From: a virus
Length of the DNA: 64,000 nucleotides
Virus record (IMG/VR): IMGVR_UViG_3300032046_000005
Span: 32,001-96,000 of that record
Reading direction: 5' to 3' (one strand)
Shown here: in pieces, positions 2,338-50,042 of the stretch
Numbering within the stretch: position 1 is the stretch's first letter
Layout: the number at the start of each line of letters is the position of its first letter
Translations under genes and position numbers: made by a program
The notes under the pieces: generated by a model
The model's database searches: none
What the model saw: the letters and a program-made list of their open reading frames with translations, nothing else
What the model was told of the DNA's origin: nothing

Positions 2338-2339
2338 AA

Positions 2340-8509: not shown

Positions 8510-8568
8510 TTTTCATCTTTTTCGTGCGATTTTATATTAATTGTATATTTTTTTGACTATTATTCTTA

Positions 8569-8910: not shown

Positions 8911-8918
8911 TTATTTCA

Positions 8919-10661: not shown

Positions 10662-10670
10662 TGATTAACC

Positions 10671-20075: not shown

Positions 20076-20750
20076 CTATTTCATATAAAAAAGATTATGC
20101 GCTTCTGATTGAGTTCTTCTTGGAATATTGAAATATTCCATATTATTTCGAATAGTTGTTTCGTTTGTGTTTTTTAACTTAGCAATTTCAATAGCAGATT
20201 TTTGATTTTTTTCAAGTGTTCTTTCTTTCATATTTTTTTCTGTTAGCCAATATAATTCAATTAATTCTTTTTTTGTGAAATTTACACATTCATTTTGTTT
20301 CATATATTGTAATTTCTTTGATTCTCTTTGAGTTCTTTCTTTCATGTTAAAATTTTTCATATTTCTTAAAATTGTTTGTTTTGTACAATTTTTAATTTTT
20401 CCTATTTCATTGTTTGTTTTCTGATTAATATCTAAAATATTATGTTCCATATTATATTCAGAAATCCAATATAGTTTGATTAATTCTTCTCTTGAAAATA
20501 AAAAGATTTTTTTCTTTCTATCATTATGACATTTATCACATTTTTCTGTATAATCTTTTATATCTCTAGTATATGGATTAGGATGTTTGTTGAATGTCCA
20601 ACTTGTTCTGACTCTTCTTCCACAAATTTCGCATATTCCTTTTCTTGGATAATTTCTATTTAACCATATATGAATTGAATTATTACCTGCTTTATCTCCT
20701 TTCCAATTATGGTGGTTTTCTCTATATTTATATGACTTTTTCTTAATCAT
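20076..20750 (-). CDS. HNH-like homing endonuclease-related protein with two HTH modules
   Basis: NWKG...IHIWL..CEICG...CDKCH; two LIxLYW..E...EI.K...TI..N repeats; real ATG at 20750 (track extension is low-complexity). Confidence 0.6.
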   Translation of the reverse strand: MIKKKSYKYRENHHNWKGDKAGNNSIHIWLNRNYPRKGICEICGRRVRTSWTFNKHPNPYTRDIKDYTEKCDKCHNDRKKKIFLFSREELIKLYWISEYNMEHNILDINQKTNNEIGKIKNCTKQTILRNMKNFNMKERTQRESKKLQYMKQNECVNFTKKELIELYWLTEKNMKERTLEKNQKSAIEIAKLKNTNETTIRNNMEYFNIPRRTQSEAHNLFYMK

Positions 20751-20885
20751 ATATATAAAAACAACATCATCTAAGATTAATTTGATGATTATAAAATAAA
20801 AATATAAAAAAAAGAAAAAAAATAAAAAAATTAATTTGGTTCTTTCAAACCAATATTTCAATTAATAGTATTGTTAGAATGCTTC

Positions 20886-27360: not shown

Positions 27361-28939
27361 TATCTCGTAAATTTCCCACACGAATCATTTTCACTTTCTT
27401 GAAATCTTTCTTATTTTTTGGTTCGAGAATCGTTTGAACCTTGAACTTGCCGTTCACGCGACAACCAACTGCTTTTTTACCTTTTCCAATGTTGAATGTT
27501 CGATATGTACCTTCTTCACATTCAGAAGGATCAAACTGTTGTTTTCGTATGAAGTTTTCAGTTTCGTGAATTTTTATCGTGTCTTTTGCAAATTTATGTT
27601 TGGCTCTTTCCTTTTCTTCCTCATATTCCATTTTCTGATGCTGTTTATGAGTTTCTTTATCAAGTTTTTCAAATTTTTTAGTTAATTTTGGATTATGGAC
27701 AATTTCTTCTTTTGTTTCTCCTTTAATTCCTTGTAATTCGTTCATTTCTCTTTCCAATTTCTTGATTTCGTGAATCAATCGAACTCTTTTTTCTATTTTC
27801 AAGTTTTTAGCTTTTTTGATTCTTTCATAATATTTAGCAAATGGAACGAGTGTTTTTTTCTTATGCGCTATGATATCCATCAAGATCATTATCAGTTCTT
27901 TAAGAACACTCTTAATGTTTGGATCGTTATCAGATAAGTGTCGTAATGTATCAACGCGTTTGTTAACTGCCTCTTGTTTTCTTTTCACGCGATAATTTTT
28001 CCATTCTTGATCTTTTTCTTTCTTTATTGATTCTTTTTTTGGATGTTCTTTATTGTGTTCTGATTCTGCTCGTTCTCGTTCGTATCCGGTTTGTTCGATC
28101 AACTTTTGAACTCCTTTTTCGCGTTCAGAAAGTTCTTTTTCTTTCTTGGTTGGTTTTTTAGGTTGTTTTGGTTCACTTGGTTCTTTCTTAATTACTTTCT
28201 TTTTCTTTACTTTTTCTTCTTTCAAGCCTTCGTAAAACTTTTTCTTGCTTTCTTCTTTTTCTCGTGGCGTTCTTTCCTTTTCCTTGTTTGCTATAAAGTT
28301 CTTAATTGCCTGTGCTTGAGTCTCTCCTTCGTTCATGCACACGTGTGTTCCTCTTATGGTTATCCAGTTGCATTTCGATGCGTCAAAATCTGTTTTTGAT
28401 TCAAAAACATTATTGATTTGCCATAAATTATTTTTTGGTAATTTGATTTTTGAAAATGCTTTAAATATGACTGCATATCTTATACTATCTTTATCTTCAT
28501 CTACTTTTTGAAATTCAATGTTCTTAATATCTTGTTTTGCAAGTTCATGTTCAAATTCTTCTTCATGACCTTTATCAATCCACACATCAATTTCTGTTTC
28601 TTTAAGTTCTTTTTTTTGTTTAACCAACTGTCTTTTTTCTCGTTGTTTTTCGAGTATTTCTCCTGTTTTTTCCCAAGACTGTTTCCATTCTGGTTGATTG
28701 TATTGTTCAAGTGATTTTTGACTCTTGTTCAAATGTTCTCTTCCTTTTTCAGAATCATAAAAATGATTGCTTTTACATATGTTGCAATAATAAGTATTTT
28801 TATTATCTTCCACAAAATCCTCGTCAAGATCCTTGAACACTTCCTCAAGCAAATCGCGCTCGTCAAAATCTGGATGTATTTTCTTTAATTCGTTGTATTT
28901 CCGAATTATCGTTTCGTGTTTGAAATCTGTTTCTAACAT
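27347..28939 (-). CDS. multimodular head-associated protein (Zn finger, WITIRGTHV module, RKQQFDP module)
   Basis: YYCNICKSNH..GREHL; WITIRGTHV resembles the WITxNGxH motif of phage head proteins; Lys/Glu-rich. Confidence 0.6.
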   Translation of the reverse strand: MLETDFKHETIIRKYNELKKIHPDFDERDLLEEVFKDLDEDFVEDNKNTYYCNICKSNHFYDSEKGREHLNKSQKSLEQYNQPEWKQSWEKTGEILEKQREKRQLVKQKKELKETEIDVWIDKGHEEEFEHELAKQDIKNIEFQKVDEDKDSIRYAVIFKAFSKIKLPKNNLWQINNVFESKTDFDASKCNWITIRGTHVCMNEGETQAQAIKNFIANKEKERTPREKEESKKKFYEGLKEEKVKKKKVIKKEPSEPKQPKKPTKKEKELSEREKGVQKLIEQTGYERERAESEHNKEHPKKESIKKEKDQEWKNYRVKRKQEAVNKRVDTLRHLSDNDPNIKSVLKELIMILMDIIAHKKKTLVPFAKYYERIKKAKNLKIEKRVRLIHEIKKLEREMNELQGIKGETKEEIVHNPKLTKKFEKLDKETHKQHQKMEYEEEKERAKHKFAKDTIKIHETENFIRKQQFDPSECEEGTYRTFNIGKGKKAVGCRVNGKFKVQTILEPKNKKDFKKVKMIRVGNLRDNESL

Positions 28940-29013: not shown

Positions 29014-29850
29014 TTAGATTGTTTCATTATTTTTTTCAATTTCTTTCAATCGATTGCATAATGGTTGATTTTTGTTCAATACAGACGAATATACTTGCCA
29101 ATTTCGTTCAGAAGGATTGATTGGAATCATTATAGGACGACCAAACGAGGGAAAATTCAAGAAATCTAACATTTCGTTGAAAGTTGATATTGTATAATTG
29201 TTCAAGTCTTCTAATCTGAATTTCTTGCATCTTGGATCGTTAATTTCTTTACCATATACAAGTTGATAATGTTCTTCAGTTTTTCTCATTGCAGTTTCTC
29301 TTTGTTCTCCAGTCCATTCTACATTAAAGTATAATTCATGTGCTTTTATCATTGTATCGTGATCTCTTTGAACGATTACAACTCTATCGTATTGATTTTC
29401 ATCTGGATCTTTTTTGTTTAAAAGTGCTTGAGGATCAACGTTATATACATTATTCCATTTTTTAGGCAATGGCAATCGGTTTCTTGTAGCGATCAAAGCA
29501 GAAATTTCGGTATTTTTTTTGGTTACGAATTCGATTGGAATGCCAAACATTGATTCATGAATATTGCTCAAAATTTTAATGATCCAACTGATTCCACACC
29601 TTTCTTGACTTACAAAAATTGTGTTGAGTTCATAAGGAAGCTTATTATTTAACTTTGGAAGATATGGTTTAATGTAATCTCTTCTCAAGTATAAATAATT
29701 CTCTTTTGAAATCCAATTATGCAATCTACATTCTAAATTAACACATTCTACATCAAAAAACAATTCTCCATTGCTATCAATTGCTTGTTTCAATAATAGA
29801 GGGTTTAATATTTCTCCACAATTTTTACATTTCATGATATAACACTTCAT
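29014..29850 (-). CDS. Zn ribbon plus sulfotransferase-like domain
   Basis: IFVSQERCGISW (5'-PSB-like), VVIVQRD (3'-PB-like), LEDLNNYT. Confidence 0.55.
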   Translation of the reverse strand: MKCYIMKCKNCGEILNPLLLKQAIDSNGELFFDVECVNLECRLHNWISKENYLYLRRDYIKPYLPKLNNKLPYELNTIFVSQERCGISWIIKILSNIHESMFGIPIEFVTKKNTEISALIATRNRLPLPKKWNNVYNVDPQALLNKKDPDENQYDRVVIVQRDHDTMIKAHELYFNVEWTGEQRETAMRKTEEHYQLVYGKEINDPRCKKFRLEDLNNYTISTFNEMLDFLNFPSFGRPIMIPINPSERNWQVYSSVLNKNQPLCNRLKEIEKNNETI

Positions 29851-30583
29851 AATCTCTTTTCATTTGTTCTGCAGTCAAGTTTCTCCATGTAATTTTATTC
29901 TTATTTTCGTTTTGTTTCATTAGTAAATCACGATCAAAAACTTTTGATCCGGCATAATGAATTATATGCGAATCAAATCGATTAGGAGAAAAATATGTTA
30001 TATGATTAAATTTATAACTTAGATTATAAATCTCAAACCTTAGTTTTCTAATCATATAATTTAAATAATCTTGTTCTGGAGTAACAATACCATTTATTTT
30101 TTGTACATTATTTATTTCTTCTATTGTTGTATTAAAGATTTCTTTATGTTGTCTAGAAGCAACTATAACTCCTGCGTTCATATAACCTGATTTCCAATTT
30201 AAATCACCCAAATGTTTTTGTATGTTTATAATTCGTTCATTTCTGTTTGATTCTGGTATTCCTTCATCTTCAAAAATGCCACCAATTTTATTTTCTGGAA
30301 CAATTTCAAATATATTTGGACAATTAGGAGTAATAATAACATCATAATCCAATCTAAGTATCCTATCGTATTTATCAAAAAGTTCATATATTTGATTCTT
30401 TTCAAACAAATTAATATTAGAATAAGTATCAAATGGTTCTATGTTATATTTCATTTGTGTTATAATTTCTAAATGCAAGTTATATTTTTCACAATACTTT
30501 AAAACTGATGGTTTACAAACTTCCCACTCTTTACTTTCTCCAATTACTATTGGAACAACAACATTAACAGGCTTATTTCTCAT
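29825..30583 (-). CDS. GT8-like glycosyltransferase
   Basis: ILRLDYD, YMNAGV, EQDYLN, IIHYAG. Confidence 0.85.
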   Translation of the reverse strand: MRNKPVNVVVPIVIGESKEWEVCKPSVLKYCEKYNLHLEIITQMKYNIEPFDTYSNINLFEKNQIYELFDKYDRILRLDYDVIITPNCPNIFEIVPENKIGGIFEDEGIPESNRNERIINIQKHLGDLNWKSGYMNAGVIVASRQHKEIFNTTIEEINNVQKINGIVTPEQDYLNYMIRKLRFEIYNLSYKFNHITYFSPNRFDSHIIHYAGSKVFDRDLLMKQNENKNKITWRNLTAEQMKRDYEVLYHEM

Positions 30584-30734
30584 GTTTTATCATCATTCAA
30601 ATAAAATTTCCCATCTTTTTCTTTCCAACAAAAATGTTCTGGAGGATATTCTTTATTGATTGCCCGATATAAATCTTCTTTATTCCTTATTATTTTTTCT
30701 AGTTCTTTCAATAACTTTCCTTTTTCATTTTTCA

Positions 30735-31439
30735 TTATTTACTACTCCTCGCTGAAAAGTTTGTAAAATCAATCATGTTTGAACCTTTTTCAACAACTAA
30801 AAAATATTCGTAAAATCTAAAAGGTAATTTATTTGTAAAATTTTTATTTGAAAAATCTCCTCGCTTTAAGAAATAATATTCTGACAACATTTTATGATTT
30901 TTTTCGTTTAATTGAGTTTGTAATTCAATTACATCAGTAAATGAATTAGGATGTCCTTTTTTTTTAGCTAATATTTCAGCATTACGAGCTAATTTATCAT
31001 TTCCGAAATAATTTATATTTTTTCCGGTAATTAATAATTTCCCACCTATTTTCAAAACTCTTAACATTTCAGAAAGCGATTTTTCTTGTTCTAAAGCGTC
31101 AAATGTTGCCATGCATATTACACGATCAAAAAAATCACTATGAAATGGAAGTCTTTCTGCTTCAGTCTTTATTATTTCAACGGTATTATCATTTGAATGT
31201 TTTTTTGCTTCATTTATCATTTTTTCTGAAATATCGATTGCATATACTTTTACATCAAGTTTTGAATAATATTGAAACAATCTTCCAAAACCACATCCGA
31301 CTTCCAAAACTTTACCTTGTATGTTTGTTTGGCTAATCATCCATTCAATAACATCATCATTAGGAACTTCTTTTATATTTTTTACTTTTTCTTTCCAATA
31401 ATCGTAATAATTGTTCCAATATTCTTCTTTACTATTCAT
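30735..31439 (-). CDS. class I SAM-dependent methyltransferase
   Basis: VLEVGCGFG, AIDIS, AERLPF..FD, RVLKIGG. Confidence 0.9.
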   Translation of the reverse strand: MNSKEEYWNNYYDYWKEKVKNIKEVPNDDVIEWMISQTNIQGKVLEVGCGFGRLFQYYSKLDVKVYAIDISEKMINEAKKHSNDNTVEIIKTEAERLPFHSDFFDRVICMATFDALEQEKSLSEMLRVLKIGGKLLITGKNINYFGNDKLARNAEILAKKKGHPNSFTDVIELQTQLNEKNHKMLSEYYFLKRGDFSNKNFTNKLPFRFYEYFLVVEKGSNMIDFTNFSARSSK

Positions 31440-32745
31440 GTAAAACCCTTCTTTTTATTGTATTAGAATCAACATCTAAAACAACGATTTCAGTCATACC
31501 ATTATCTGTATTAGAAGCAATTCCTATTTTATCTATTGCTTTTTTAGGAAGCGTATAAAAATCAAAAGTGAAAGTCCACCAATTATCACTACGATAATCC
31601 AAATTTTGCCAAATGTATTCACCAGATTTAGTTTTGATTGCAAGAAAAGGTTGAGTTCCAAATATGTTATTTTCTGATATTACATTTAATCTTGAAGAAT
31701 CAAAAGTAAGACTGAATTTGGGAGGGTTTAAATTGGTCGTGTTTGTGACATTTCTTATTCCTTCATTGGCATTACAATATCTAAATTTAACATCTGGATA
31801 TTCTCCTGATACAATTCGTATCATATTTTGTGTTCTATTAATTTCCTTTTTCATATTTCTATAATCGTGATCAGCAAACGAAATCAAGGTTGGTAAACCT
31901 TCTGAAGCTCGTTTGAATCCATCTCTAAAATCATTAATTGAAATTTCTTTTACTCTCGCTTCCATATTCAAACATCTTGCAATCAAACGATGACAATTTC
32001 CTTTTTCTTGATAATCTCTATAATCTGGATGATACGGCATCCATTCTAAAGGAGCATGTCGCCAATCTCCAAAACGTCCATCAGATAAATCAAATTGTTC
32101 TGATGTATTTATTTTCATTGAACTGTTTCCATAAACAAAAGGAATCCATTGTTCAAAAAAATAAGATAAGTCTGGTCTTTCTATACCAGAACGAACTGCA
32201 GAAGGAAACCACAAACGATCTATTATCTTTCTTGCCAATGTTTCATATATTATGGGAGAATAAGTATTTCCTGTTAAGTGAGCATCTTTCTTTATTGAAA
32301 TGGGATGAAAATGAAACTGAATTTCGTCTTCTTTATATTTAAGGTAATGATCGAAAATGTTATGAAATCCCATATCTCGTCTTCGTGGATTTTCTCCCAT
32401 AAAACCGACCCAATCGATACAAAACCAAGTATATTTCCATCCATTTTCAAACGAATCTGGAAAATTATGTCTAAAATCTTTTGATGTAATTTCATTTAAC
32501 ATCACATCTATTTTATCCCAAGTATCGTTATAATCTAAGAGTTCTAGAGAAACCATTTCGGCAATTGCCTTATCTTTTCCCTGTCTTAACATTTCTAAGT
32601 TTTGGAGAGTAGGTTCATACTTTACTCCAAAAATATCATAAATTCGTTCAAATGTAGCTTCTGAAGATTCATATAATGGTCCTTCTGTATCTACACAATG
32701 AACAATATTTACTATTTTTTCATTCTGGATATTCGGAACGAACAC
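31432..32745 (-). CDS. polysaccharide deacetylase-like (NodB-type barrel) protein
   Basis: HCVDTEG, TWF, FHFHP, VRSG, DWR motifs. Confidence 0.6.
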   Translation of the reverse strand: MFVPNIQNEKIVNIVHCVDTEGPLYESSEATFERIYDIFGVKYEPTLQNLEMLRQGKDKAIAEMVSLELLDYNDTWDKIDVMLNEITSKDFRHNFPDSFENGWKYTWFCIDWVGFMGENPRRRDMGFHNIFDHYLKYKEDEIQFHFHPISIKKDAHLTGNTYSPIIYETLARKIIDRLWFPSAVRSGIERPDLSYFFEQWIPFVYGNSSMKINTSEQFDLSDGRFGDWRHAPLEWMPYHPDYRDYQEKGNCHRLIARCLNMEARVKEISINDFRDGFKRASEGLPTLISFADHDYRNMKKEINRTQNMIRIVSGEYPDVKFRYCNANEGIRNVTNTTNLNPPKFSLTFDSSRLNVISENNIFGTQPFLAIKTKSGEYIWQNLDYRSDNWWTFTFDFYTLPKKAIDKIGIASNTDNGMTEIVVLDVDSNTIKRRVLHE

Positions 32746-33617
32746 GATTTACACACATCAATTAAATGAGATTTTTTTTCATCCATCAGTTTTCGAATTT
32801 GAGCAAATTCTTTTCCTAACCAAACATCTTCAATTGTATCTGTATTGATATCTCCTAAGATTTTGTTATCTCCACGCGTTCCACAACATAATACCATTTT
32901 TCCATCTGCTCTTATTGTCATTCGTTGATATATGCTTTCACAAAAGAAATCAGAAGGGTTTTCCATATTGCGAAGATTAATATAATCTTCACAATATGGA
33001 CTTATTCTAATAACATCAGCATAATGCTTCCAAAACTCTTCATATTCTCCTGATTCTATTTCTTCTTTATTCAATGCCATGAGAATTGCTTGAATTTGTA
33101 TTCGGGGTTTTTTTGATTGGTATTCTTTTCGTAATCTGTTTAGTCCATTTAAACCATTAATTACTTTGTTTAAATCTCCATTTACTCGTAATTTTTTATA
33201 TGTTTCTTGGATAAGCGAATCAATTGAAAAAATAATGAGGTCTAAACCACTTTTTATTAATTTAGAAGATATTATATCAGTTAATAAAGTTCCATTTGTT
33301 GCTAACATTACATCGACAATTCCTTTATCTTTTGCATATTTAATTGCTTTTCCTAAGTTTTTATATAATAAAGGTTCTCCAAGATAGCACAATTTAACAG
33401 AAGAACCGCCTTTTTCAGCAAATTCGTCTATTATTTTTTCATACATTTCAAATGGCATATCAAGTAATTCTGGAGGATGTGATGTGTGTTCGCAAAATGC
33501 ACATGAAAGATTGCATCGTGTTGTGATTTCAATATCTGTGTGGATTGGAGTTTTATCTACAATTCGTAGTTTAGGATAATTTTCCCATTTCCAACGATAA
33601 GTTTCATAATCAGTCAT
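32712..33617 (-). CDS. radical SAM/SPASM protein
   Basis: CNLSCAFC, GEPLL, TNG, SID, C-terminal C...DG..LCC...CKSC. Confidence 0.9.
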   Translation of the reverse strand: MTDYETYRWKWENYPKLRIVDKTPIHTDIEITTRCNLSCAFCEHTSHPPELLDMPFEMYEKIIDEFAEKGGSSVKLCYLGEPLLYKNLGKAIKYAKDKGIVDVMLATNGTLLTDIISSKLIKSGLDLIIFSIDSLIQETYKKLRVNGDLNKVINGLNGLNRLRKEYQSKKPRIQIQAILMALNKEEIESGEYEEFWKHYADVIRISPYCEDYINLRNMENPSDFFCESIYQRMTIRADGKMVLCCGTRGDNKILGDINTDTIEDVWLGKEFAQIRKLMDEKKSHLIDVCKSCSFRISRMKK

Positions 33618-33618
33618 T

Positions 33619-34512
33619 TTATAACAATCCTAATATTTTCAAAGCATCTGGCATTAGTTCTCTATAAATTCTAAAAGATCTACAATGTTGTAATTTATAT
33701 TCTTCTGGAGTTAACACATAAGGGTTTGGAAGAGTGGGATCGTGCGTAAATTGAGTATATTCCATTTTTTTGTTCGGATCTCCTTTTTCTTCCATTTTTA
33801 AGAAATCTCCTTTTGCATATTCACCAGTAGGATCTTGATTTTGAATGTCAATACTCATGGGATCTAAACCCCAATCTTTTGCTATTTGACACGACATTAC
33901 GTTCCAATTCCTTAATGGAGTATTGAAAGGAACTAAGCAAGATCGTATTGGATTGTCTTTCAAATATTGCAATATTTGGTTTTTATCCATTTCGTTCAAA
34001 TGAGTTTCGACATGATTAATTACATCTGGATATGTGTGTTTTGGATATTCTAAGAAGTCTAGTAAATCGCTAAATGTTGGTTCTGTATAGTTGTTTAAAT
34101 TACCTAAATCAACTAAATACATTCGAGGATCTTTAAATTCGTGATTATAACACAAATCATAGTAAAATTCGCATTCTTTCAAGAAATCAGGACATTTTTT
34201 CAATGTTTCATCATAAGTTAATTCAGGACATCTATATATTTGCATTGCTTTCATATAACTCTCTTTATCTCGTTTTATAATGATGATTTTATCGTATGGT
34301 CTATTCAAGAGTTTCAAGGGATTTATCAGCAAAACTTCGTTAAATCCTTTTGGAAAATAATATTTATCAATAGTTGCTAAAATTCTACTAATTCCAAAGT
34401 TCCAATTCATTATTTCTCCATACATTTTTTTATGAATTTCTGATATGATGCCACATACCCATGATGCTCCACATCTTTCTACACTTACTATAATTATGTT
34501 TTTTTTAATCAT
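33619..34512 (-). CDS. sulfotransferase-like protein
   Basis: IIVSVERCGASW, IIIIKRD, NLNNYT; paralogue of 29014..29850. Confidence 0.55.
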   Translation of the reverse strand: MIKKNIIIVSVERCGASWVCGIISEIHKKMYGEIMNWNFGISRILATIDKYYFPKGFNEVLLINPLKLLNRPYDKIIIIKRDKESYMKAMQIYRCPELTYDETLKKCPDFLKECEFYYDLCYNHEFKDPRMYLVDLGNLNNYTEPTFSDLLDFLEYPKHTYPDVINHVETHLNEMDKNQILQYLKDNPIRSCLVPFNTPLRNWNVMSCQIAKDWGLDPMSIDIQNQDPTGEYAKGDFLKMEEKGDPNKKMEYTQFTHDPTLPNPYVLTPEEYKLQHCRSFRIYRELMPDALKILGLL

Positions 34513-37500
34513 TTTCTAACTTTACCTATTTTATATTGATTCCATTTTTCTATTATTAATTCTCCCCAATTAGGATTATGTTGCCAGGTAAAAGCTAAAA
34601 TCTGTGATAGAACCTGTCCCCATTTGGTTAAACATACTTCTATTGGAGCCCAACACACTTCTTTTGTTATTTCATCAGGTTGAGTATATTTTACTAGTCC
34701 ATGCCATTGCATGAACATTGTATCTTTTTCATTAAATGTTTGTTTTGTTTCAAGTATTTGATGAACATGCCATGCCCATACTTTTTTGTACTTAAAACCA
34801 TTTTGTTTACATCTTGATTGAAAAATCAAATCTTCATTTCTATAAATAAAATCGTCTTCAATTTCATCAATCAAATCTTTTATTGATTCCTTCTGTATCA
34901 ATTGAAATCCAGAATATGATCTTTTTGTATAATGCGTTTTACCTCGTTTGTATGTTTTTCCATCAAAAAATATTCTTTCAGATTCAATAATTCCAATATC
35001 TGGTTTTGCATGTTTTTGCATTACTCTAAAACTTCCTTTAGTAAGTCTTACATCTGAATGAACGAAGACAAACCAATTTTGGACGAGTTTCATTAATTCA
35101 ACAAGACACATTCCAAGTGTTTTGTATTTTCTTTGATCTATTACTTGTATTTCGATATTAGGTGGAATAATGGGTCGTATTTTATATTTGATAACTTCTT
35201 CAAAATCAAAATCTTTAATTGATCTATTTATTCCAAATATGATGCGTTTGACTGGAATTTCTTTTATCCATGATTTCACATTATCAACAAAAAAATCGGT
35301 ATTAATCCAATAAACAGGACAAATCACATCAAATTTTTCTTTGTCTAATATTTTTAATGTGTCAATAGTAGTCAAAAACGGATTCATTGTGAATGTTTCT
35401 CCTTTTTGCATTTCTTTTTCCATTGGAGTTGTTTCATAACCTTCAGTTTCTTCAGTAGTAATGTAATCTATCGCAGGAGTTATTGTTTTTTTATTTGTTT
35501 TGAATTCTAGTTTTGTATTACTATATTTTGAATGAAGTTTTTGTAATCTTTCGTTGATTAAATCTCCAGCATTAAAATCTGCTGAAAATGCTTCCCACAC
35601 TCGTTCTGGTGTATTTACAGGAATGATGATTGGTCTTCCTTCTTTTGGAAAATCTAAAAAATTAAATATTTCAGTAAATGTAGCTACTGTATAATTGTTT
35701 AAATCTTCTATATATATTCGCAATACTTTTGGAGAATCAATTTCATCATATGTTTGATTGTAATATTCTGCTATTCTATCAAACCATACTTTATATTCCG
35801 GATTATCTTTATCTGTTTTATAGTCAAGATTAGGTTTATATTCATTATAATAGTAGAACAACATTGATTCTTTCCAAGATTCGAATTTTCTTTGCAATAA
35901 AATGATTCGATCATGTGGTTTTTTTACTATATCTTTAATTGGAACATAATTTACAGCATTCCAACCTTTAGGAGAAGGATAATCAGGATGAGCAACTTCT
36001 AATCTACTTATCCTCGTGTTCCATACTTTTCTTTTTTTATACATTTTTTCATATATTAATGAAACATATCGGCAAAACCAAGAAAGTCCACATCGTTCAG
36101 TTGTAGAAATTAATATGTTCAAATCTCCAGGATCATTTTTATATTCAATTGTTCTGTTTTTAAGGATGTTTGGAGTTAATTTAAAGAATAGTTTTGTAAT
36201 ATATTTTGCATTTTCGATATATGTATTATCTTTTAATATTTTTTTATATGCATTTTCTACAATTTCTTGTTTGTTTTGAGTTTGATCATATACTTCTTTG
36301 ATTTCATTTAATGCTTTTATAGCAATATAATGTTTTCCAGCAATAAAACCAGCATTTTCTAGTATTTGTTTATGCGTTTCATTTTCTAATTTAATAATAC
36401 ACAATGTCTTACATGCCATAGTTTCATATATTTTATGTGAAAGGTATTGTTGAGTAGCTATATTAACAAACAATGCTTCACATTTTGGTAGTATTTCTCT
36501 ATATTCAATGTTAGAAATCGGAGTATCAAAACATCGAAATCCTAATTTTTTAAATTCTTCCCATTCGTTATATAAGATGTGAGCAATGGGAACCATCGTG
36601 ATTTCATTTGCTTTTTCTATATATTCTATGGTTTCTCGAAATCCAATTCCGGTTATTCTATCGTATTTCTTTTCTTCTGGATGGTATATTTCAGTGTCAA
36701 TGGCAAGAGGTATGATTTCATGATATGGAACATTATACATCCAAAAAGGAGCAAAAATTTTTTCGAAATAATTCATTACAACTCCATGCCAAAGAAATAT
36801 CACATCAGGATAATCAACTTCTGGAGGTCTTTTGTATTCCCTATGATGATAAAAAACAGGAATGCTTACATCATTTTTCCACAAAAAATTACATTCATCA
36901 ATTAGAATGAGATCTGGATAAAAAGAATATTTTTGTAATATGATTGATAATGGATAATGTTTTTGTTGCATCCAATGTCTATCAAAATATTCGTCATACA
37001 AATCGTGAGGAGAAATATATTTTACTTCTTTTCCTAATTTTTCAAAAGCAATTTTAATACCTTCAGAAAAATGACACGATTCAGCAATAGAGGGACCTAT
37101 TATAAGTATTTTGTTTAATACTATAACTTTTGATATTTTTTCAATTTTTTGTTTTATTTCTTTTTGTTTAATTTCTTCTTTTTTTTGTTTTATTTCTTCT
37201 AATGTAGATTTTGATTTTTCTTCAATTTTTTGCTTTTCTTCTGTTATGTGTTTTATTTCAATTTTTTTTTCAAAGACTTTCAAATCTTCTTTAATTTTAG
37301 GAATTGATGTATAAGTATTACTTATTAACCATTTCAATCTGTCACGCAAATTATTATCAAGATTATATTTTATAAAAATACCCATGCAATATAATAGATT
37401 TTGTTCTATAACTTCATTTGTCCAATTAATTTTTTGAAATTCTGGATCATCAAATCCACTTGGATCTATGTTATCTGCTATATTTTCTAATTCTTTTTTA

Positions 37501-37604
37501 TGATTATCATTATCAAGTTTAAACCTACTAATATGACGCAATATAGAACCTATTTCTTTCTTAGCTTTGTTTTTTAAAATCTTTCTTTCTTCTAATGTTG
37601 CCAT
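34509..37604 (-). CDS. multidomain GT-B (CgeB-like) plus sulfotransferase-like plus GT2-like glycosyltransferase
   Basis: PLAIDTEIY..KIYETMAC..HY..NTY; ISTTERCGLSW..EDLNNYT; DVICPV..FVFVHSD..NED. Confidence 0.7.
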   Translation of the reverse strand: MATLEERKILKNKAKKEIGSILRHISRFKLDNDNHKKELENIADNIDPSGFDDPEFQKINWTNEVIEQNLLYCMGIFIKYNLDNNLRDRLKWLISNTYTSIPKIKEDLKVFEKKIEIKHITEEKQKIEEKSKSTLEEIKQKKEEIKQKEIKQKIEKISKVIVLNKILIIGPSIAESCHFSEGIKIAFEKLGKEVKYISPHDLYDEYFDRHWMQQKHYPLSIILQKYSFYPDLILIDECNFLWKNDVSIPVFYHHREYKRPPEVDYPDVIFLWHGVVMNYFEKIFAPFWMYNVPYHEIIPLAIDTEIYHPEEKKYDRITGIGFRETIEYIEKANEITMVPIAHILYNEWEEFKKLGFRCFDTPISNIEYREILPKCEALFVNIATQQYLSHKIYETMACKTLCIIKLENETHKQILENAGFIAGKHYIAIKALNEIKEVYDQTQNKQEIVENAYKKILKDNTYIENAKYITKLFFKLTPNILKNRTIEYKNDPGDLNILISTTERCGLSWFCRYVSLIYEKMYKKRKVWNTRISRLEVAHPDYPSPKGWNAVNYVPIKDIVKKPHDRIILLQRKFESWKESMLFYYYNEYKPNLDYKTDKDNPEYKVWFDRIAEYYNQTYDEIDSPKVLRIYIEDLNNYTVATFTEIFNFLDFPKEGRPIIIPVNTPERVWEAFSADFNAGDLINERLQKLHSKYSNTKLEFKTNKKTITPAIDYITTEETEGYETTPMEKEMQKGETFTMNPFLTTIDTLKILDKEKFDVICPVYWINTDFFVDNVKSWIKEIPVKRIIFGINRSIKDFDFEEVIKYKIRPIIPPNIEIQVIDQRKYKTLGMCLVELMKLVQNWFVFVHSDVRLTKGSFRVMQKHAKPDIGIIESERIFFDGKTYKRGKTHYTKRSYSGFQLIQKESIKDLIDEIEDDFIYRNEDLIFQSRCKQNGFKYKKVWAWHVHQILETKQTFNEKDTMFMQWHGLVKYTQPDEITKEVCWAPIEVCLTKWGQVLSQILAFTWQHNPNWGELIIEKWNQYKIGKVRK

Positions 37605-38177
37605 TTAGTCAAAATTCCTAATTTTTTCTCTCATTCCTATTTTTTTGCAAGGAGAACCGACGTAAATCGTCCAAGGTTCTAAGTCTTTTAACGCCAATGA
37701 ATTAGAACCGAGTATTGCTCCATCTCCAACCGTGATACAAGGATGAACGATTGAATTAGTTCCTATGACTACATCTTTACCAATATACATTCTTCCTCTT
37801 TTTATATTTTGTTGATTATTTGGAACAGATGCAGTCATGTGAAAGCCTCCTTGATGCAAGTTTGAACCTGTAACCAAACGAGAACCAGCGGCTAATGCGC
37901 TATAATCTCCCATTTCTAATTCCCCTCCTCCTACTATGCTTACAAACGATGCAATATGAACATATTTTCCAATCTTGATTCCCATTCCTCCGTAAAGAAA
38001 TGTAAAATCGTCAATCATGGAATAATCTCCGATTTCTATGACTTCTGGATTTACAAACTTAGCCTGTGGAAAAATTTTTACATTCTTTCCAAAACTTTTG
38101 AAATCATTTGACATTAATTTACGATATCCGTTTTCTAATTTTATTTTTGTTAGGCAATCGATTATTTCATTTGGCAT
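37605..38177 (-). CDS. hexapeptide-repeat (LbH) sugar acyltransferase
   Basis: IEIGDYSMI, IKIGKYVHI, IGKDVVIG, VGDGAILG, GSPCK. Confidence 0.9.
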   Translation of the reverse strand: MPNEIIDCLTKIKLENGYRKLMSNDFKSFGKNVKIFPQAKFVNPEVIEIGDYSMIDDFTFLYGGMGIKIGKYVHIASFVSIVGGGELEMGDYSALAAGSRLVTGSNLHQGGFHMTASVPNNQQNIKRGRMYIGKDVVIGTNSIVHPCITVGDGAILGSNSLALKDLEPWTIYVGSPCKKIGMREKIRNFD

Positions 38178-39004
38178 TTTTTCTCTCCTTTCATATCTCT
38201 TAATATTTTACTTTCTGATTTAGTTCTTATTGTTATATCATATTTTATGAGATTTTGTCTAATAGTTCCATAATTACAATTGTTTTCTTTAGCTATTTCT
38301 AATATACCTTTTTGTAATTTATTTAATTGCTTATTTTTCATACATTTTTCTGAAGTCCAATATTCTATAATTAAATATATTCTACTAAAAAAACATCTAA
38401 TTCTATGATTTGTTATTTCTTTAGAAATTTTTTTTCCTTTTTCCCATTGATGATAACATTTTAATGAACAAAAATGATGACAACTATTTTTATTATATTT
38501 ACAACCTTTTTTTATTACTTCTTTTCCACAATGATCACAATTATATTTATGTTCAATTCCTCCATCTTTCCAATTTGGATTATCTTTACCATTATATTTT
38601 CCTTTTCTCATTTCACTTATTTTTTTCTTTGTTTCAAATGTATGTTTTCCATTATTTCCTCCACATTTAAGATTATAACCATAAGAATGATCTAATGTAT
38701 TATATTTTTGAATGTAAAAATCTTCTTTTCTATTTAATTCATTTTGGCTAATTGCAGAATCAATAATTTTAAATTCAAAATTATTAATTTCATATTTTTT
38801 TAAACTATTACATAAATATGAATTAAAATTATAATTGCGTAATAATTCATTTAATTTACAAGAACGACTTCTAAAACCTCGTTTATTTACTGTTTGACCA
38901 ATATATCTTTTATTATTTATTTTGTTTCTAATTTGATAAATATATCCATAAGGATTTAAAAAATCTTCTAATGTTATCATTCGGCTTTCATTTTTAATTT
39001 CCAA
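38162..39004 (-). CDS. GIY-YIG homing endonuclease (NUMOD3, Zn finger, HTH)
   Basis: GYIY..N..NNKRYIGQT, E..YI..GYNL..GG, HTFETKKKISE..KG..NPNWK. Confidence 0.85.
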   Translation of the reverse strand: MEIKNESRMITLEDFLNPYGYIYQIRNKINNKRYIGQTVNKRGFRSRSCKLNELLRNYNFNSYLCNSLKKYEINNFEFKIIDSAISQNELNRKEDFYIQKYNTLDHSYGYNLKCGGNNGKHTFETKKKISEMRKGKYNGKDNPNWKDGGIEHKYNCDHCGKEVIKKGCKYNKNSCHHFCSLKCYHQWEKGKKISKEITNHRIRCFFSRIYLIIEYWTSEKCMKNKQLNKLQKGILEIAKENNCNYGTIRQNLIKYDITIRTKSESKILRDMKGEKKCQMK

Positions 39005-40011
39005 TATCCATCACCATTCTTTTCTAATATTTTACGATTTGCAAATTTATCTATTGTTTTTAGAAACAATTCTTTTGAAATATTCAAACCACTACAAAAA
39101 TCTTCTTCCATCACTAGATCTTTCTGCCAGTCATATTTATTAACTCTTTTGACGGCTTCTTTTCTACTCATTTCACCGTGTCTTACCATATTACTACAAT
39201 GTTCTGTTGTGGCTCCAAATCCAAATTTGATGAATTTGCAAAATTCATTAATAAGATATCCGACAGTATCCACTTGGCAATATTCAAATCCTTGATATCC
39301 TTCACGATCCCATTCGTTTGTATCGTTTAATCCTTTGAAACCGTATTGTTTTGCAAATTCATATCTCTTTATTAGACTCTTCCAAGGAACATAATAACTT
39401 GTAAATATTACATCAAGATCTTTAAATTCATTAGAATCTTTAAGTAATATTTTAGCATTTGGAGTTTCTTTTTCATTCTTATTTCCAATAGTTATATTTG
39501 TGTTTTCTCCCCAAATAACTAATTTAATACCCATTTTCTGTGCTATTTCTAATGGTTTTTTATAAAGAATTTCATCCCAATATTTTTCTGGATGTAAATA
39601 ATTTAAAAAATCTTCTCTTGTTCTTTTTATAATTTCTTTTCTATTTGGAGTAAAAGTAATGATATCAATTCCAAAACGTTCGCTTAAATTATCAAAATTT
39701 TTTCTTCCAGTATTGGTCCAACTAAAATTATCAATCATTATTCCTAATGGATTCATTAAAAGTTTTTCTTTAAATAAATAAACCAAATAATGAGAATCTT
39801 TTCCTGAACTAATACAAATAATGCAATCATAATTTCCATCATTTCGTTTATATTTTTTACATAATTCTTCAAGTTCTTTCCATCTTTCATTCCAATCTAT
39901 TTTTTTACTTTCTTCAAATTGAACACACGAATTACATATTCCTTCTTTTGTAAACGAAAGATTCAATCTTTGATTAGTCATCACACATCTTTTACAACGC
40001 AAAAATTTCAT
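38977..40011 (-). CDS. N-acetyl sugar amidotransferase (WbpG/PseA-like)
   Basis: CKRC..GICNSC, YDCII.ISSGKDS PP-loop, KFIKFGFG, RHG.MSR.EA. Confidence 0.85.
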   Translation of the reverse strand: MKFLRCKRCVMTNQRLNLSFTKEGICNSCVQFEESKKIDWNERWKELEELCKKYKRNDGNYDCIICISSGKDSHYLVYLFKEKLLMNPLGIMIDNFSWTNTGRKNFDNLSERFGIDIITFTPNRKEIIKRTREDFLNYLHPEKYWDEILYKKPLEIAQKMGIKLVIWGENTNITIGNKNEKETPNAKILLKDSNEFKDLDVIFTSYYVPWKSLIKRYEFAKQYGFKGLNDTNEWDREGYQGFEYCQVDTVGYLINEFCKFIKFGFGATTEHCSNMVRHGEMSRKEAVKRVNKYDWQKDLVMEEDFCSGLNISKELFLKTIDKFANRKILEKNGDGYWKLKMKAE

Positions 40012-40491
40012 TTAAATCAACTTCTTTATAGTATATTGATTGTTGCATATTCCTAAATCCCAATCTTTTTTTGTGTGACAAGAATGACATAACCATTCAT
40101 AATCTTCAATATTTCGTGTATAATTTCCTTTTGAATGATCAAAACTTAATTCTATTTTTCTTTCTTTTCTACATTTCATGCAATATATTGGTTTGGAATA
40201 ATTGGTATTTAACCATATATGAATTGCTTTTTGTCCAGCATTATTTCCTTTCCATAAATAATGTTTTTCTCTTCCTAAAAACCCTTTTAATCCTTTATTC
40301 CAAGGTATTTTTCCTTTTAAATATTTTATTTTTTGAGATTCAGAAAGATTTCTTATTTTTATGTTAAAGCGTACTAACCAATTAAAAACAGTTGTAGGAC
40401 TATTTACATTACATAAATGTGCTATTTCTACAGTTGAATTTTTTTTAATTATATACTGATCATATAACCAATTTTTATCTTTATAACTCAA
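40012..40491 (-). CDS. HTH plus NUMOD plus HNH-like homing endonuclease-related protein
   Basis: YKDKNWLYDQY..EIA; PWNKG; WKG..IHIWL..CMKC..WLCHSCH. Confidence 0.65.
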   Translation of the reverse strand: MSYKDKNWLYDQYIIKKNSTVEIAHLCNVNSPTTVFNWLVRFNIKIRNLSESQKIKYLKGKIPWNKGLKGFLGREKHYLWKGNNAGQKAIHIWLNTNYSKPIYCMKCRKERKIELSFDHSKGNYTRNIEDYEWLCHSCHTKKDWDLGICNNQYTIKKLI

Positions 40492-41354
40492 TCTATTTCA
40501 CTCCACTTTTCATATTCATTAGGAATTATCCAATATTTAGGATTCACATCATTAGAAATCAAGATTTCATAATCAGAAATAAGTTTTTCGTGTAATTTTT
40601 CTCCTAATCGATTACCAATTATTTCGATAGGATAATCTTTTCCCACTATTTCTTGAATAACATCTATTAGTTTTTGTTCTCTAAGTTTCGGAACCCATAT
40701 TTCTCCATTTTTACCTTCTATAAATGCTTTCGTGATGAAATCAATCATTTCTTTAGGATACATGAAAAACCGTTCCATATCTATATTTGTAAGTAATATG
40801 GGTTCTTTTTTTTCTTTTTTTTCTTTAGCAATTTGAACTATTGAACCTCTAGAACCATATATATTTCCTAGTCTCACACAAACCATTTGAATCAGAGGAT
40901 CTTGACTCCATCTTACCTGTAGCAATCTTTCACTTATTTTTTTTGAACATCCCATTAAGGATGAAGGTTCAATTGCCTTATCTGTACTAATATGTAATAA
41001 TTTCTTGATTTTATGTTCAATAGAAGCAGTAATAATGTTATCAAGTCCCATAATATTTACAGAAACTGCTTCCATAGGATTATATTCACAAAAGGGAACA
41101 TGTTTGATTGCGGCACAATTTATTGCATAATTTACTCCTTTCAATGCTCTACGAACTCTTTCTAAGTTTCTTACATCACCCAACAAACACCGAATTCTGT
41201 TATTATTCCATTTTTGTTGACATTCCCATAAAGAATTTTCATCATTACTGAATACTCGTATTGAATATGGTTTTTGTTTTAATAGATATTCAACAATGAG
41301 AGAACCAATAGATCCTGTTCCTCCAAATACACATGTTGTCTTATCTTTAAACAT
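40488..41354 (-). CDS. UDP-GlcNAc 4,6-dehydratase (PseB/CapD/PglF family)
   Basis: GGTGSIG, AAIKHVP, STDKA, MGCSK, RLGNIYGSRGS, GEKLHE. Confidence 0.9.
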   Translation of the reverse strand: MFKDKTTCVFGGTGSIGSLIVEYLLKQKPYSIRVFSNDENSLWECQQKWNNNRIRCLLGDVRNLERVRRALKGVNYAINCAAIKHVPFCEYNPMEAVSVNIMGLDNIITASIEHKIKKLLHISTDKAIEPSSLMGCSKKISERLLQVRWSQDPLIQMVCVRLGNIYGSRGSIVQIAKEKKEKKEPILLTNIDMERFFMYPKEMIDFITKAFIEGKNGEIWVPKLREQKLIDVIQEIVGKDYPIEIIGNRLGEKLHEKLISDYEILISNDVNPKYWIIPNEYEKWSEID

Positions 41355-49274: not shown

Positions 49275-50042
49275 GTGATACAAACAAACAAAATATACAA
49301 CATTGATTGTCAAGAAGGATTCAAACAATTGAACGATAATTCGATACATTTGATTGTTACATCTCCTCCTTACAATGTCAACAAAGAATACGAAGAAAAC
49401 CAAACATTTGATGATTGGTATGAACTAATGAAAGAAGTAATAAAAGAATCAAAACGAGTTCTCGTTTCTGGAGGAAGACTATGCATTAATGTAGCTAATA
49501 TTGCTCGAAAACCTTATATTCCTTTAAATTATTACATAATAGATATTTTACTTCAGATAAAATTTTTACTTAGAGGTATTATAATATGGGAAAAAGGAAT
49601 ATCTGGAGGAAAAAGTACAACTTGGGGATCTTGGAGATCTGCTTCTAATCCAGTTATTAGAGATGATTATGAATTTATTATTGTTTCTTGTAAAGATAAA
49701 TACAAACTTGAACCAAAAGGTATTAATTCAATTTCTTCAAAAGATTTTCTTTTTTGTTATAATGCAGTATGGCATATGAATGCAGAATCAAATCCTAATA
49801 TAAATCATCCTACTCCTTTTCCAATTAATTTACCAAAGCAATTAATAGAATTTTATACTTTTGAAAACAACATTATATTAGATCCTTTCATTGGATCAGG
49901 AACAACAGCAATTGCTGCCTTATTAACAAGAAGAAAGTTCATAGGATTCGAAAAAGAAAAAAAGTATGTTGACTTGGCAAATAAACGCATTTATCCATAC
50001 TTAGGACAACAAAAAATAACAGACTTTACCAGTCATCAATAA
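49275..50042 (+). CDS. beta-class N4-cytosine/N6-adenine DNA methyltransferase
   Basis: LIVTSPPY motif IV, HPTPFP, LDPFIGSGTT motif I. Confidence 0.92.
   Translation: MIQTNKIYNIDCQEGFKQLNDNSIHLIVTSPPYNVNKEYEENQTFDDWYELMKEVIKESKRVLVSGGRLCINVANIARKPYIPLNYYIIDILLQIKFLLRGIIIWEKGISGGKSTTWGSWRSASNPVIRDDYEFIIVSCKDKYKLEPKGINSISSKDFLFCYNAVWHMNAESNPNINHPTPFPINLPKQLIEFYTFENNIILDPFIGSGTTAIAALLTRRKFIGFEKEKKYVDLANKRIYPYLGQQKITDFTSHQ

Follow-up and report, generated by a model that had tools for sequence, protein, structure and literature searches.

Why does a virus keep, beside its portal gene, a 12-kb run of enzymes for building and modifying sugars, and what would these enzymes decorate? The question is raised by positions 29014-41354 of the DNA analysed here (the window, 64,000 bases long, i.e. 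bases 32001-96000 of one 115,632-base contig, IMGVR_UViG_3300032046_000005), where twelve open reading frames (ORFs) of 159-1031 aa, all on the minus strand, lie between the portal gene and the genes of a downstream module. An earlier note, made from the sequence alone, had described a co-oriented, virus-encoded glycan cluster in the late (structural) region; the cluster is real, each enzyme class listed at the time was recovered (domain calls by Pfam, NCBIfam and PHROGs), and its late setting is supported by gene content and by the portal flank. We propose that the genome codes for the tailoring of a legionaminic/pseudaminic (Leg/Pse)-type nonulosonic acid (NulO) drawn from a host supply. The proposal as a whole, that is, a late module which re-tailors host NulO, together with transferases that would build a glycan, most likely on virion proteins, has in our judgement about an even chance of being right. 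The cluster and its two flanks are as follows.

43140-45077, minus strand: portal protein, upstream flank (Phage_portal_3, 39.7 bits; phrog_146, 9.8e-15)
40488-41354, minus strand: Polysacc_synt_2 UDP-HexNAc 4,6-dehydratase, 288 aa (PF02719, 242.5 bits)
40012-40491, minus strand: HNH-type homing endonuclease, 159 aa (phrog_8446, 3.9e-10)
38977-40011, minus strand: WbuX/PseA-family N-acetyl sugar amidotransferase, 344 aa (TIGR03573)
38162-39004, minus strand: GIY-YIG homing endonuclease, 280 aa, an optional insertion (phrog_7168, 4e-26)
37605-38177, minus strand: left-handed beta-helix (LbH) acyltransferase, 190 aa (Hexapep, 48.3 bits)
34509-37604, minus strand: 1031-aa fusion protein of GT-B-like, sulfotransferase (ST)-like and GT2-like parts
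about 37110-37604: its Lys/Glu-rich N-terminal region
about 36135-37109: its GT-B-like part (Glyco_trans_1_2, 21.6 bits against a cut-off of 25)
about 35400-36134 (residues about 491-735): its ST-like part, a paralog of the two free ST-like genes
34512-35336: its GT2-like C-terminal part, which resembles viral GT2 clusters (0.97-0.98, a lead)
33619-34512, minus strand: ST-like protein, 297 aa, predicted sulfotransferase fold, ERCGASW loop
32712-33617, minus strand: radical S-adenosylmethionine (rSAM)/SPASM enzyme, 301 aa (PF04055, 64.1 bits against 29.5; PF13186, 47.1 against 21.5)
31432-32745, minus strand: 437-aa 'deacetylase-like' enzyme, CE4/NodB type by predicted fold only
30735-31439, minus strand: class I S-adenosylmethionine (SAM) methyltransferase, 234 aa, partner of the 437-aa gene (Methyltransf_11, 79.7 bits)
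29825-30583, minus strand: GT8-family glycosyltransferase, 252 aa, DYD motif (PF01501, 45.7 against 24.3 bits)
29014-29850, minus strand: Zn-ribbon plus ST-like protein, 278 aa, the third ST-like paralog
24958-28939, minus strand: two large genes (530 and 807 aa), downstream flank, part of the portal-linked module

A glycan module beside the portal gene

Neighbouring genes of the cluster overlap by up to 34 nt or are separated by up to 13 nt, apart from a single larger gap of 151 nt (between 30583 and 30735), and the G+C content (GC) of the cluster, 0.24-0.31, shows no compositional break against that of the genome (0.2875). The highest 19-residue Kyte-Doolittle mean in its proteins is 1.57, and none has a segment resembling a membrane span. 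The Pfam scans on which the following statements about the genome depend covered 20 ORFs in and around the cluster, 49 outside the window and a further 56, of which 50 lie in the window and 6 beyond it; they revealed no flippase, polymerase or oligosaccharyltransferase family. The earlier description overlooked the HNH and GIY-YIG homing endonucleases within the cluster, as well as a NeuC-like/NeuB-like pair of genes at 51950-53244.

The module recurs in related viruses. With the ST-like family as bait, 12 AT-rich contigs (GC 0.24-0.35) were obtained from JGI metagenomes, and gene order in them was established with Pfam and with tblastn, for which every protein of the virus genome served as query. 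In contig L096 the portal gene (46% identity) stands directly before that of a dehydratase (287 aa, 56% identical), after which come, in this order, WbuX-like, rSAM/SPASM (48%), GT2 and methyltransferase genes and an ST-like/GT-B-like fusion. L098 is collinear with 29014-37604 at 47-70% identity (56% for the 1031-aa protein, 70% for the 297-aa ST-like protein), and no GT8 homolog was detected by tblastn between its methyltransferase and ST-like genes; a GT8 homolog of 76% identity occurs in L094. The module of L102, which includes the LbH (51%) and WbuX (52%) genes, lies upstream of the portal, and homologs of the 807-, 278-, 163- and 323-aa window proteins come directly after the portal. In L101 and L104, short matches to the N-terminus of the 807-aa protein immediately precede ST-like genes, and L101 has such a match to the 530-aa protein as well. 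L095 carries, in turn, the end of a NeuC-like gene, PIG-L, a methyltransferase, ATP-grasp, rSAM/SPASM, a 202-aa CTP_transf_3, a second rSAM/SPASM, FkbM, an ST-like/GT-B-like fusion, GT2 and more ST-like genes. The rSAM/SPASM enzyme, in which the CxxxCxxC motif is present as CNLSCAFC, thus has homologs in L095 (two copies), L096, L098 and L102.

From these gene orders, the module is an old feature of the virus group, mobile within the genome and tied to the portal/head region. The earlier picture of a block inserted between portal and head genes therefore stands in part: the portal is identified (Phage_portal_3), the downstream genes are seen only as portal-linked homologs, and a recent insertion is contradicted, since the module is conserved in the group and lies on either side of the portal in relatives. 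The 530- and 807-aa proteins gave no family match in Pfam, NCBIfam or PHROGs, and when the Pfam threshold was lowered to E <= 1, nothing useful turned up for the 530-, 807-, 278-, 400-, 163- and 323-aa proteins on the downstream side.

The sugar made, the chemistry of each step, the transfer of sulfate and the target are given here as we infer them. Late in infection, the viral dehydratase (which would take the first step of the NulO route), NeuC-like and NeuB-like proteins would add flux to, or redirect, a Leg/Pse-type pathway of the host, with the host supplying transamination, N-acetylation and activation with cytidine monophosphate (CMP). WbuX would convert an N-acetyl into an acetamidino group, the LbH enzyme would contribute a tailoring of the NulO of the O-acetyltransferase type, and the CE4-fold enzyme would remove an acetyl group, after which the freed position would be methylated by the adjacent methyltransferase (or modified by a sulfotransferase). 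The soluble GT-B-like/ST-like/GT2 fusion, the GT8 enzyme, the two free ST-like proteins and the rSAM/SPASM enzyme would then build and decorate a glycan on its acceptor, in the cytoplasm and at the time of head assembly, the acceptor most likely being virion proteins. The 'amidated' (by WbuX) and 'methylated' sugar of the earlier note are reasonable suppositions. In the SugarBase preprint (bioRxiv 10.64898/2026.04.20.719630), an amidotransferase role is described for ptmG in C. jejuni, and deacetylation at the level of the CMP-sugar for another organism.

Would the target be the virion or the host? The same enzymes might rewrite host surface glycans during infection (S-layer, archaellum/pili, N-glycan precursors) or change the nucleotide-sugar pool, which could block superinfection or stop progeny from sticking to debris. 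The incomplete viral pathway must in any case mesh with host enzymes, and Asgard genomes hold full NulO clusters with the 437-aa family and a sulfotransferase, the intermediates of which could be used by the viral enzymes. Moreover, the glycan of the HRPV-1 host is common to S-layer and virion (PMC6137143), and a published Asgard-virus locus has been interpreted as acting on 'viral structural or host proteins' (PMC13700489). However, the module is kept with portal/head genes in the window, L096, L102, L101 and L104, and not with early or lysogeny genes; a membrane-bound transferase, flippase or oligosaccharyltransferase was not found, nor does any cluster protein have a membrane-span-like segment; and the fusion to transferases of an ST-like family that is essentially confined to viruses suggests a virus-specific acceptor. 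Virion proteins are favoured for these three reasons, namely the company of portal/head genes in several relatives, the absence of membrane-span-like segments from the cluster proteins and the essentially virus-only ST-like family, although it weighs against them that the virion as target is read from gene position alone. A host target seems unlikely to us, while still deserving serious consideration.

Linkage to nonulosonate loci

One connection with nonulosonic acids comes from the 437-aa protein. Neither it nor its family has a recognisable sequence relative among known domains: no Pfam, NCBIfam or PHROG match was obtained (Polysacc_deac_1 included), and the family profile gave nothing below E 0.2 against PDB sequences. 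Its AlphaFold2 (AF2) model (predicted local distance difference test, pLDDT, 85.1) resembles CE4/NodB-type deacetylases over residues ~8-340, with VIA Z scores of 13.0-11.8 (3qbu 13.0, rmsd 3.6 over 223 residues; 3rxz 12.6; 3lm3 12.4; Agd3 12.2) and Foldseek probabilities of 0.99-1.00 for 3lm3 and 3s6o, and is completed by a C-terminal beta-sandwich (residues 342-426). In alignment A1 of the family, H16, C17, D19, E21, H145 and H147 are invariant. A (beta/alpha)-barrel deacetylase fold of the CE4 kind is thus supported by modelling, and the former label 'deacetylase-like' holds by fold, with no Pfam match behind it. The model also matches 8qpg chain TC, a chain of the capsid turret of Haloferax tailed virus 1, with Z 9.8 over 191 residues, and a similar barrel seems to be present in that turret chain.

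The family comprises 1097 proteins at E <= 0.001, of ~450 aa and unannotated; its bacterial members, typically 45-55% identical, include a protein of Campylobacter jejuni. Pattern matches in GTDB species genomes numbered 309, with 295 confirmed; Asgard metagenome-assembled genomes (MAGs) supplied the two nearest ones, at 56% and 53% identity. Neighbours were counted in the best 80 cellular loci (up to 10 kb on each side, tblastn with seeds from annotated loci), among which are records of Helicobacter, Bacteroides, Treponema and Pelagibacteraceae. A CMP-transferase gene was near the family gene in 56 of the 80 loci, NeuB in 51, a PglD-type gene in 47, DegT in 45, NeuC and a dehydratase in 38 each, and WbuX in 20, compared with four for an rSAM/SPASM homolog. 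NeuB or a CMP-transferase was present in 63/80, and in 43/49 among loci of at least 20 kb. Random windows of 20 kb would hold such genes in roughly 1% of cases, given one or two of them per genome of a few megabases.

The direct neighbour of the family gene was a methyltransferase homolog in 21 of the 80 loci and a Sulfotransfer_3 gene in 15, with both in none. In the virus and in L098 it is the methyltransferase; in both Asgard loci it is a sulfotransferase. One of these, L014 (a Heimdallarchaeota MAG contig, 1-13154), has a full NulO cluster (two NeuB, NeuC, PglD, two CMP-transferases, dehydratase and DegT) with the 437-aa family gene and Sulfotransfer_3 after it; the other, L049 (a Promethearchaeati MAG contig, 1-11319), has the 437-aa family gene with Sulfotransfer_3 and, farther along, PIG-L, ATP-grasp, HAD and UDP-glucose dehydrogenase genes, among others. 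Judged by these neighbourhoods, the 437-aa family and its methyltransferase are a recurrent gene pair of cellular NulO loci. Distant homologs (26-30% identity) occur in nine IMG/VR contigs, and in three annotated loci among them the homolog stands directly before CTP_transf_3 with NeuB nearby.

As a separate observation, three unrelated IMG/VR contigs (L005, L009 and L010; GC ~0.35-0.41, one from a 235-kb record) contain co-oriented sugar clusters of 15-20 kb, with NeuB (two in L010), CTP_transf_3, a carbamoyltransferase, methyltransferases, GT1/GT2 glycosyltransferases, Sulfotransfer_2 pairs and a distant homolog of the 437-aa family.

Another line of evidence is the pair of short genes that immediately precede the terminase gene, at a distance of 10 kb from the cluster:

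52603-53244, minus strand: shortened homolog of NeuC/LegG-like hydrolysing 2-epimerases, 213 aa (PF02350, 39.2 against 30.6 bits)
51950-52609, minus strand: NeuB-like nonulosonate synthase homolog without SAF domain, 219 aa (PF03102, 37 against 22.1 bits)

The best PDB match of the NeuC-like protein is the LegG-type 2-epimerase 5xvs (3.1e-6). The NeuB-like protein keeps the GxSDHT and EKH metal-site motifs (G162, S164, H166, E191, K192 and H193 are invariant in alignment A6) and ends at residue 219. Both genes are found again in L099, as a 208-aa NeuC-like protein of 62% identity and a NeuB-like part of 45-47% identity; the latter lies within a 378-aa ORF, the N-terminal part of which resembles the HNH protein of 40012-40491. 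The SAF domain carries a substrate-binding Arg (R314 in N. meningitidis NeuB), and SAF-less NeuBs are known from environmental bacteria, both according to PMC8208679.

The WbuX/PseA-family protein, predicted earlier as an N-acetyl sugar amidotransferase, passes the TIGR03573 cut-off over its full length (254.2 against 203.2 bits, in two matched stretches). It has SSGKDS at residues 67-73 (S68, G70, K71, D72 and S73 invariant in alignment A7) and C6, C9, C26 and C29 conserved across the 14 sequences of A7, which we take to be the PP-loop ATP-pyrophosphatase motif and the N-terminal Cys4 cluster. In this family ammonia is supplied by WbuY/WbuZ (HisH/HisF-like), though not universally, and no GATase or His_biosynth family that could represent such partners was found among the scanned ORFs of the genome. 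Its nearest named relatives are from Promethearchaeota (56, 53 and 49% identity); in IMG/VR the single query gave no match, and alignment A7 found nine contigs at 30-40% identity. With the sugar-specific cut-off passed by WbuX and with NulO-linked partners, a role in DNA hypermodification was set aside as very improbable.

The acyltransferase is of the LbH type as had been noted, yet it is closest to O-acetyltransferases of the WcaF/Vat/CatB type (WcaF family 67.8 bits, below the cut-off of 192) rather than to N-acetyltransferases of the PglD/NeuD type, and shows no similarity to the PglD of L014.

Several points weigh against the NulO reading. The NeuC-like protein is ~40% shorter than usual and may not be catalytic, judging by its length. 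The genome has no DegT aminotransferase, no PglD/PseH-type N-acetyltransferase and no CTP_transf_3 (Pfam; tblastn with L014/L095 seeds, E <= 1), and neither Maf/DUF115 nor a sialyltransferase family, i.e. transferases that use CMP-NulO, appeared in the Pfam scans. Of the six steps of the Leg/Pse pathway, dehydratase, NeuC-like and NeuB-like are represented in the genome, while the other three were not found; from this gene content, the virus alone cannot make or activate a Leg/Pse-type sugar. The dehydratase is, by sequence comparison, not assignable to the PseB, PglF/LegB or FnlA/CapE subtype, fitting PseB, FnlA/CapE and CapD about equally. Finally, WbuX enzymes also act on 6-deoxy-hexosamines (E. 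coli O145). The same searches extend the absence of aminotransferase and CMP-transferase, first remarked on for the window, to the full 115.6-kb genome, and because the virus lacks both, the host must complete the pathway. PIG-L and ATP-grasp were likewise not found (Pfam scans; tblastn with L014/L095 seeds, E <= 1).

It could therefore be asked whether the product is a nonulosonate at all. It might instead be a FucNAm/QuiNAm-like 2-acetamidino-2,6-dideoxy-hexose, which the dehydratase and WbuX (a family named for the FucNAm pathway of O-antigens) would make from UDP-GlcNAc and which would next be modified by O-acetylation, methylation or sulfation on an oligosaccharide of the ordinary kind, with the NeuB-like and NeuC-like proteins as remnants or serving some other purpose. 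The lack of an aminotransferase and a CMP-transferase would fit this, as would the heavily shortened NeuC-like protein and the dehydratase itself. The latter, with motifs GGTGSIG and STDK...LMGCSK, has Met at the position of the FlaA1/PseB Tyr, and so has its best solved match, the FnlA-type 4,6-dehydratase/5-epimerase 4j2o (1e-54; FlaA1 follows at 9.9e-53). It falls below both equivalog cut-offs (PseB TIGR03589, 237 against 407.75 bits; FnlA TIGR04130, 197.1 against 730), and its C-terminus is ~45-60 residues shorter than that of solved homologs. By comparison with L096, this short form is not caused by the neighbouring HNH gene, because the L096 enzyme has the same length without it (tblastn with the window proteins found no HNH homolog between the dehydratase and amidotransferase genes of L096). 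On the other hand, a Met-type dehydratase also occurs in the Asgard NulO cluster L014, where it adjoins DegT; the NeuB-like protein retains its metal-site motifs, and L099 has conserved counterparts of both short genes; the 437-aa gene and its methyltransferase partner are linked, as a pair, to NulO loci; the L095 module contains CTP_transf_3; and no FnlB/FnlC-type reductase or epimerase was found in the Pfam scans of the genome. A product other than a nonulosonate thus appears doubtful. The nonulosonate link postulated earlier is, from this gene content and linkage, likely (NeuB-like and NeuC-like genes, NulO-linked 437-aa family).

The sulfotransferase-like proteins

Three ST-like paralogs, 35-39% identical, are encoded in the cluster (relative to 33619-34512, 39% for 29014-29850 and 35% for the part in the fusion), and all three keep ERCGxSW. 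Homologs of the 278-aa protein are present at 47-49% identity in L094-L098 and L100. The earlier guess that these genes are ST-like agrees with all of the profile-versus-PDB, Foldseek and VIA comparisons, which point to a sulfotransferase fold. A profile of 31 members gave 22 PDB matches, of which 20 are sulfotransferases (best SULT2A1, 2.2e-5), and in these alignments ERCGxSW falls on the PKSGTNW 5'-phosphosulfate loop and the conserved R81 on the 3'-phosphate-binding Arg of RNPRD. The AF2 model (pLDDT 81.4) has only sulfotransferases among the Foldseek matches listed, and VIA ranks 1-19 have Z 9.8-8.6, with 1nst (the NDST sulfotransferase domain) on top. A sulfotransferase fold is thus supported for these proteins at the level of predicted structure.

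The family is rare (81 proteins at E <= 0.001 in a profile search of 1.84 billion representatives). Among 400 genomes of the Asgard phylum there were only two partial matches with marginal E-values, and in IMG/VR 29 pattern matches, none of them confirmed (a pattern scan calls for tighter conservation than alignments A3 and A4 offered, and a narrower A4, then A5, was used). From these searches the family appears to be essentially virus-only.

The 1031-aa protein had been described as a GT-B/ST/GT2 fusion. Its ST-like part, as a paralog of the free genes, is beyond this description's weak points, which are the GT-B part, scoring below cut-off, and the GT2 C-terminus, a lead from similarity. Among the scanned members of the ST-like family, 12 of 28 show Glyco_trans_1_2, seven of them above cut-off; the L095 homolog of the GT2-like part reaches PF00535 (23.7 against 23.3 bits), and the C-terminal domain of the 1031-aa protein had no match among PDB sequences. 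The three parts occur as separate or reordered genes in L095, L100 and L102.

Several features would fit a different role, in which the ST-like domains are no sulfotransferases but a diverged P-loop-like module that escorts the glycosyltransferase domains (nucleotide or acceptor binding, phosphotransfer). The Pfam score is below the cut-off (Sulfotransfer_1, 16.3 bits against 22, E 0.0065, for 33619-34512; no match for the other two), P-loop kinases follow the top VIA matches from Z 8.3, ~1.5 below, and the loop corresponding to the 5'-phosphosulfate-binding loop varies across the family (ERCG, ELGG, RLSA, PHMG). The positions of the 3'-phosphate Ser and of the catalytic His are not conserved, and neither that Ser nor a catalytic base could be identified, a point against the main proposal. 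Furthermore, no gene for the synthesis of 3'-phosphoadenosine 5'-phosphosulfate (PAPS) was seen in the Pfam scans of the genome, and L100 has three canonical Sulfotransfer_1 genes (7-2080 and 6809-7525; E 1e-23 to 6e-16) beside two ST-like ones, as if the latter did not cover that job. Set against this are the 20 of 22 profile matches, the alignment of ERCGxSW with PKSGTNW and of the conserved Arg with the 3'-phosphate-binding one, the Foldseek matches and the presence of ERCGxSW in all three paralogs, and we consider the escort role rather improbable. A 'sulfated' product, as had been suggested, is strengthened by the canonical sulfotransferases beside the same genes in relatives and in the Asgard loci. 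In L100, five genes of the sulfotransferase fold lie within 8 kb.

Going one step further, the 437-aa family and its methyltransferase or sulfotransferase partner might act as an NDST-like two-step system, first de-N-acetylating the NulO and then N-methylating or N-sulfating it; such a system would be widespread in bacteria and Asgard archaea and would have been captured by the virus, the capsid of which would be coated with a charge-modified, sulfated NulO glycan unlike that of the host, made with the help of a virus-only sulfotransferase family fused to glycosyltransferases. This extended scheme is speculative, and we regard it as improbable in its entirety.

The virus, its probable host and known systems

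The first and last 30 bases of the contig recur in a way that fits a 187-nt terminal direct repeat, and for that reason the 115,632-base genome is probably complete. Terminase, portal and tape-measure-like matches are present, so that the virus is, by its genes, a tailed one. An origin of the cluster by misassembly with host DNA, or by host insertion in the very recent past, which its close cellular relatives (WbuX and the 437-aa protein each 56% identical to Asgard MAG proteins) might suggest, is extremely improbable, because independent contigs repeat its junctions (portal/dehydratase in L096, ST-like/530- or 807-aa short matches in L101 and L104) and GC shows no break, while 71% of the cluster's sampled words recur in a second sediment run, which belongs to another study, and the contig ends match the terminal repeat. 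Further features of the genome are listed below (L001, L002 and L003 are labels for stretches of it outside the window).

50026-51828: large terminase, TerL (phrog_38, 2.7e-29)
15291-16253: tape-measure-like matches
6780-7187, plus strand: PTH2 peptidyl-tRNA hydrolase
769-1122; 20076-20861; 38162-39004; 40012-40491: homing-endonuclease-like candidates in the window
L001 13604-14887; L002 4859-5464; L003 7453-8739: homing-endonuclease-like candidates outside it
L001 11137-11607: ThiS-like ubiquitin-fold protein
L002 10758-11486: Thg1 tRNA-His guanylyltransferase
L003 3145-4044: RNA ligase

Outside the window the genome encodes PCNA, Thg1, a ThiS-like protein, an RNA ligase, a primase and many DNA methylases. 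The PCNA is ~60% identical to cellular PCNAs, and the 13 organism-named matches among the best 120 are all from Asgard archaea (Promethearchaeota, Thor-, Hermod-, Loki- and Hodarchaeota). Given this kinship, the nearest named WbuX relatives and the source of the sequence (the two public runs that contain it are sediment metagenomes), the host is likely to be an Asgard archaeon. A search for relatives with the portal protein found none in IMG/VR and none in 400 genomes of the phylum of L049, an empty result that is uninformative, and TerL and WbuX had no tblastn match (E <= 1e-5) in 50,697 GenBank phage records.

Apart from the sugar genes, the genome contains many free-standing genes that resemble homing endonucleases (at least seven candidates of the GIY-YIG/NUMOD3 and HNH types), has at least six DNA methyltransferase genes, and carries with PTH2, Thg1, the ThiS-like protein and the RNA ligase a set related to translation and RNA repair. 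A sediment contig from the second study skips 38107-39063, i.e. the GIY-YIG gene, and carries 144 other letters there, with the WbuX-side flank diverged (25 differences in 111 bases); this fits a free-standing homing endonuclease that is polymorphic for presence or absence between the WbuX and LbH genes, and such a polymorphism within the cluster is a natural marker of gene flow between strains.

Virus-encoded sugar modules as such are already known. What appears to be new is that these enzymes occur together in an Asgard-type virus, that a virus-only ST-like family is represented three times, that a CE4-like protein and a methyltransferase or sulfotransferase form a cassette of NulO loci, and that a NeuC-like/NeuB-like pair is present in shortened form. 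A literature search, which left most subscription journals outside its reach, found no description of the 437-aa family or of this virus, nor of a deacetylase-like/sulfotransferase pair in prokaryotic NulO loci. Few viruses of Asgard archaea have been described, and no sugar module so far connected with these hosts would be as elaborate as that of the 115.6-kb genome. Whatever the virus does with them, two enzyme leads can be tested: the CE4-fold family, paired with a methyltransferase or sulfotransferase in NulO loci of many bacteria (host-associated genera included), and the rare ST-like family, known almost only from these viruses.

In comparison with the cellular Leg/Pse pathways (PseB/C/H/G/I/F and LegB/C/H/G/I/F), the virus likewise has a dehydratase, NeuC/LegG-like and NeuB-like proteins, a WbuX/PseA-family enzyme and a SAM methyltransferase, but neither an aminotransferase nor a PglD/PseH-type enzyme nor a CMP-synthetase; its NeuB lacks the SAF domain, its NeuC has ~213 aa, and its genes lie at two separate sites of the genome, in company with virus-only transferases. 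The archaeal pathway for comparison is the Leg pathway of Halorubrum sp. PV6 (PMC6137143), and the PseA/PtmG-type amidotransferase and the PtmH methylation of C. jejuni, as presented in bioRxiv 10.64898/2026.04.20.719630, are counterparts of the viral WbuX and methyltransferase.

NDST1 (9f6z, 1nst) likewise pairs a CE4-like deacetylase fold with a PAPS-sulfotransferase fold, and different parts of the 9f6z chain are similar to the 437-aa model (Z 10.1) and to the ST-like model (Z 9.5). In the virus, however, the two folds are on separate genes, sequence identity is 8-9%, the direct neighbour is a methyltransferase, and the predicted substrate would, by analogy, be a NulO or its precursor instead of a GlcNAc polymer.

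The Asgard tailed virus GuangzhiV1 also encodes sugar and transferase genes, read in PMC13700489 as modifiers of virion or host proteins. Its locus of 5.5 kb (three glycosyltransferases, a GDP-mannose dehydratase and a methyltransferase) is the largest glycan locus given there for Asgard viruses, which are of 15-57 kb; the present module is larger (12 kb plus two genes) and has in addition WbuX, the CE4-like/methyltransferase pair, rSAM/SPASM and three ST-like proteins.

That an archaeal virus particle can bear a sulfated, NulO-capped glycan, and that such decoration matters for adsorption, is known from HRPV-1: according to PMC6137143, its virion glycan contains a sulphated sugar and ends in 5-N-formyl-legionaminic acid made by the host. 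According to the same paper, HRPV-1 is enveloped, uses the N-glycosylation route of the host and encodes no part of the pathway, whereas the virus described here is by its genes tailed, with soluble enzymes, and appears to encode many tailoring steps as well as transferases of its own.

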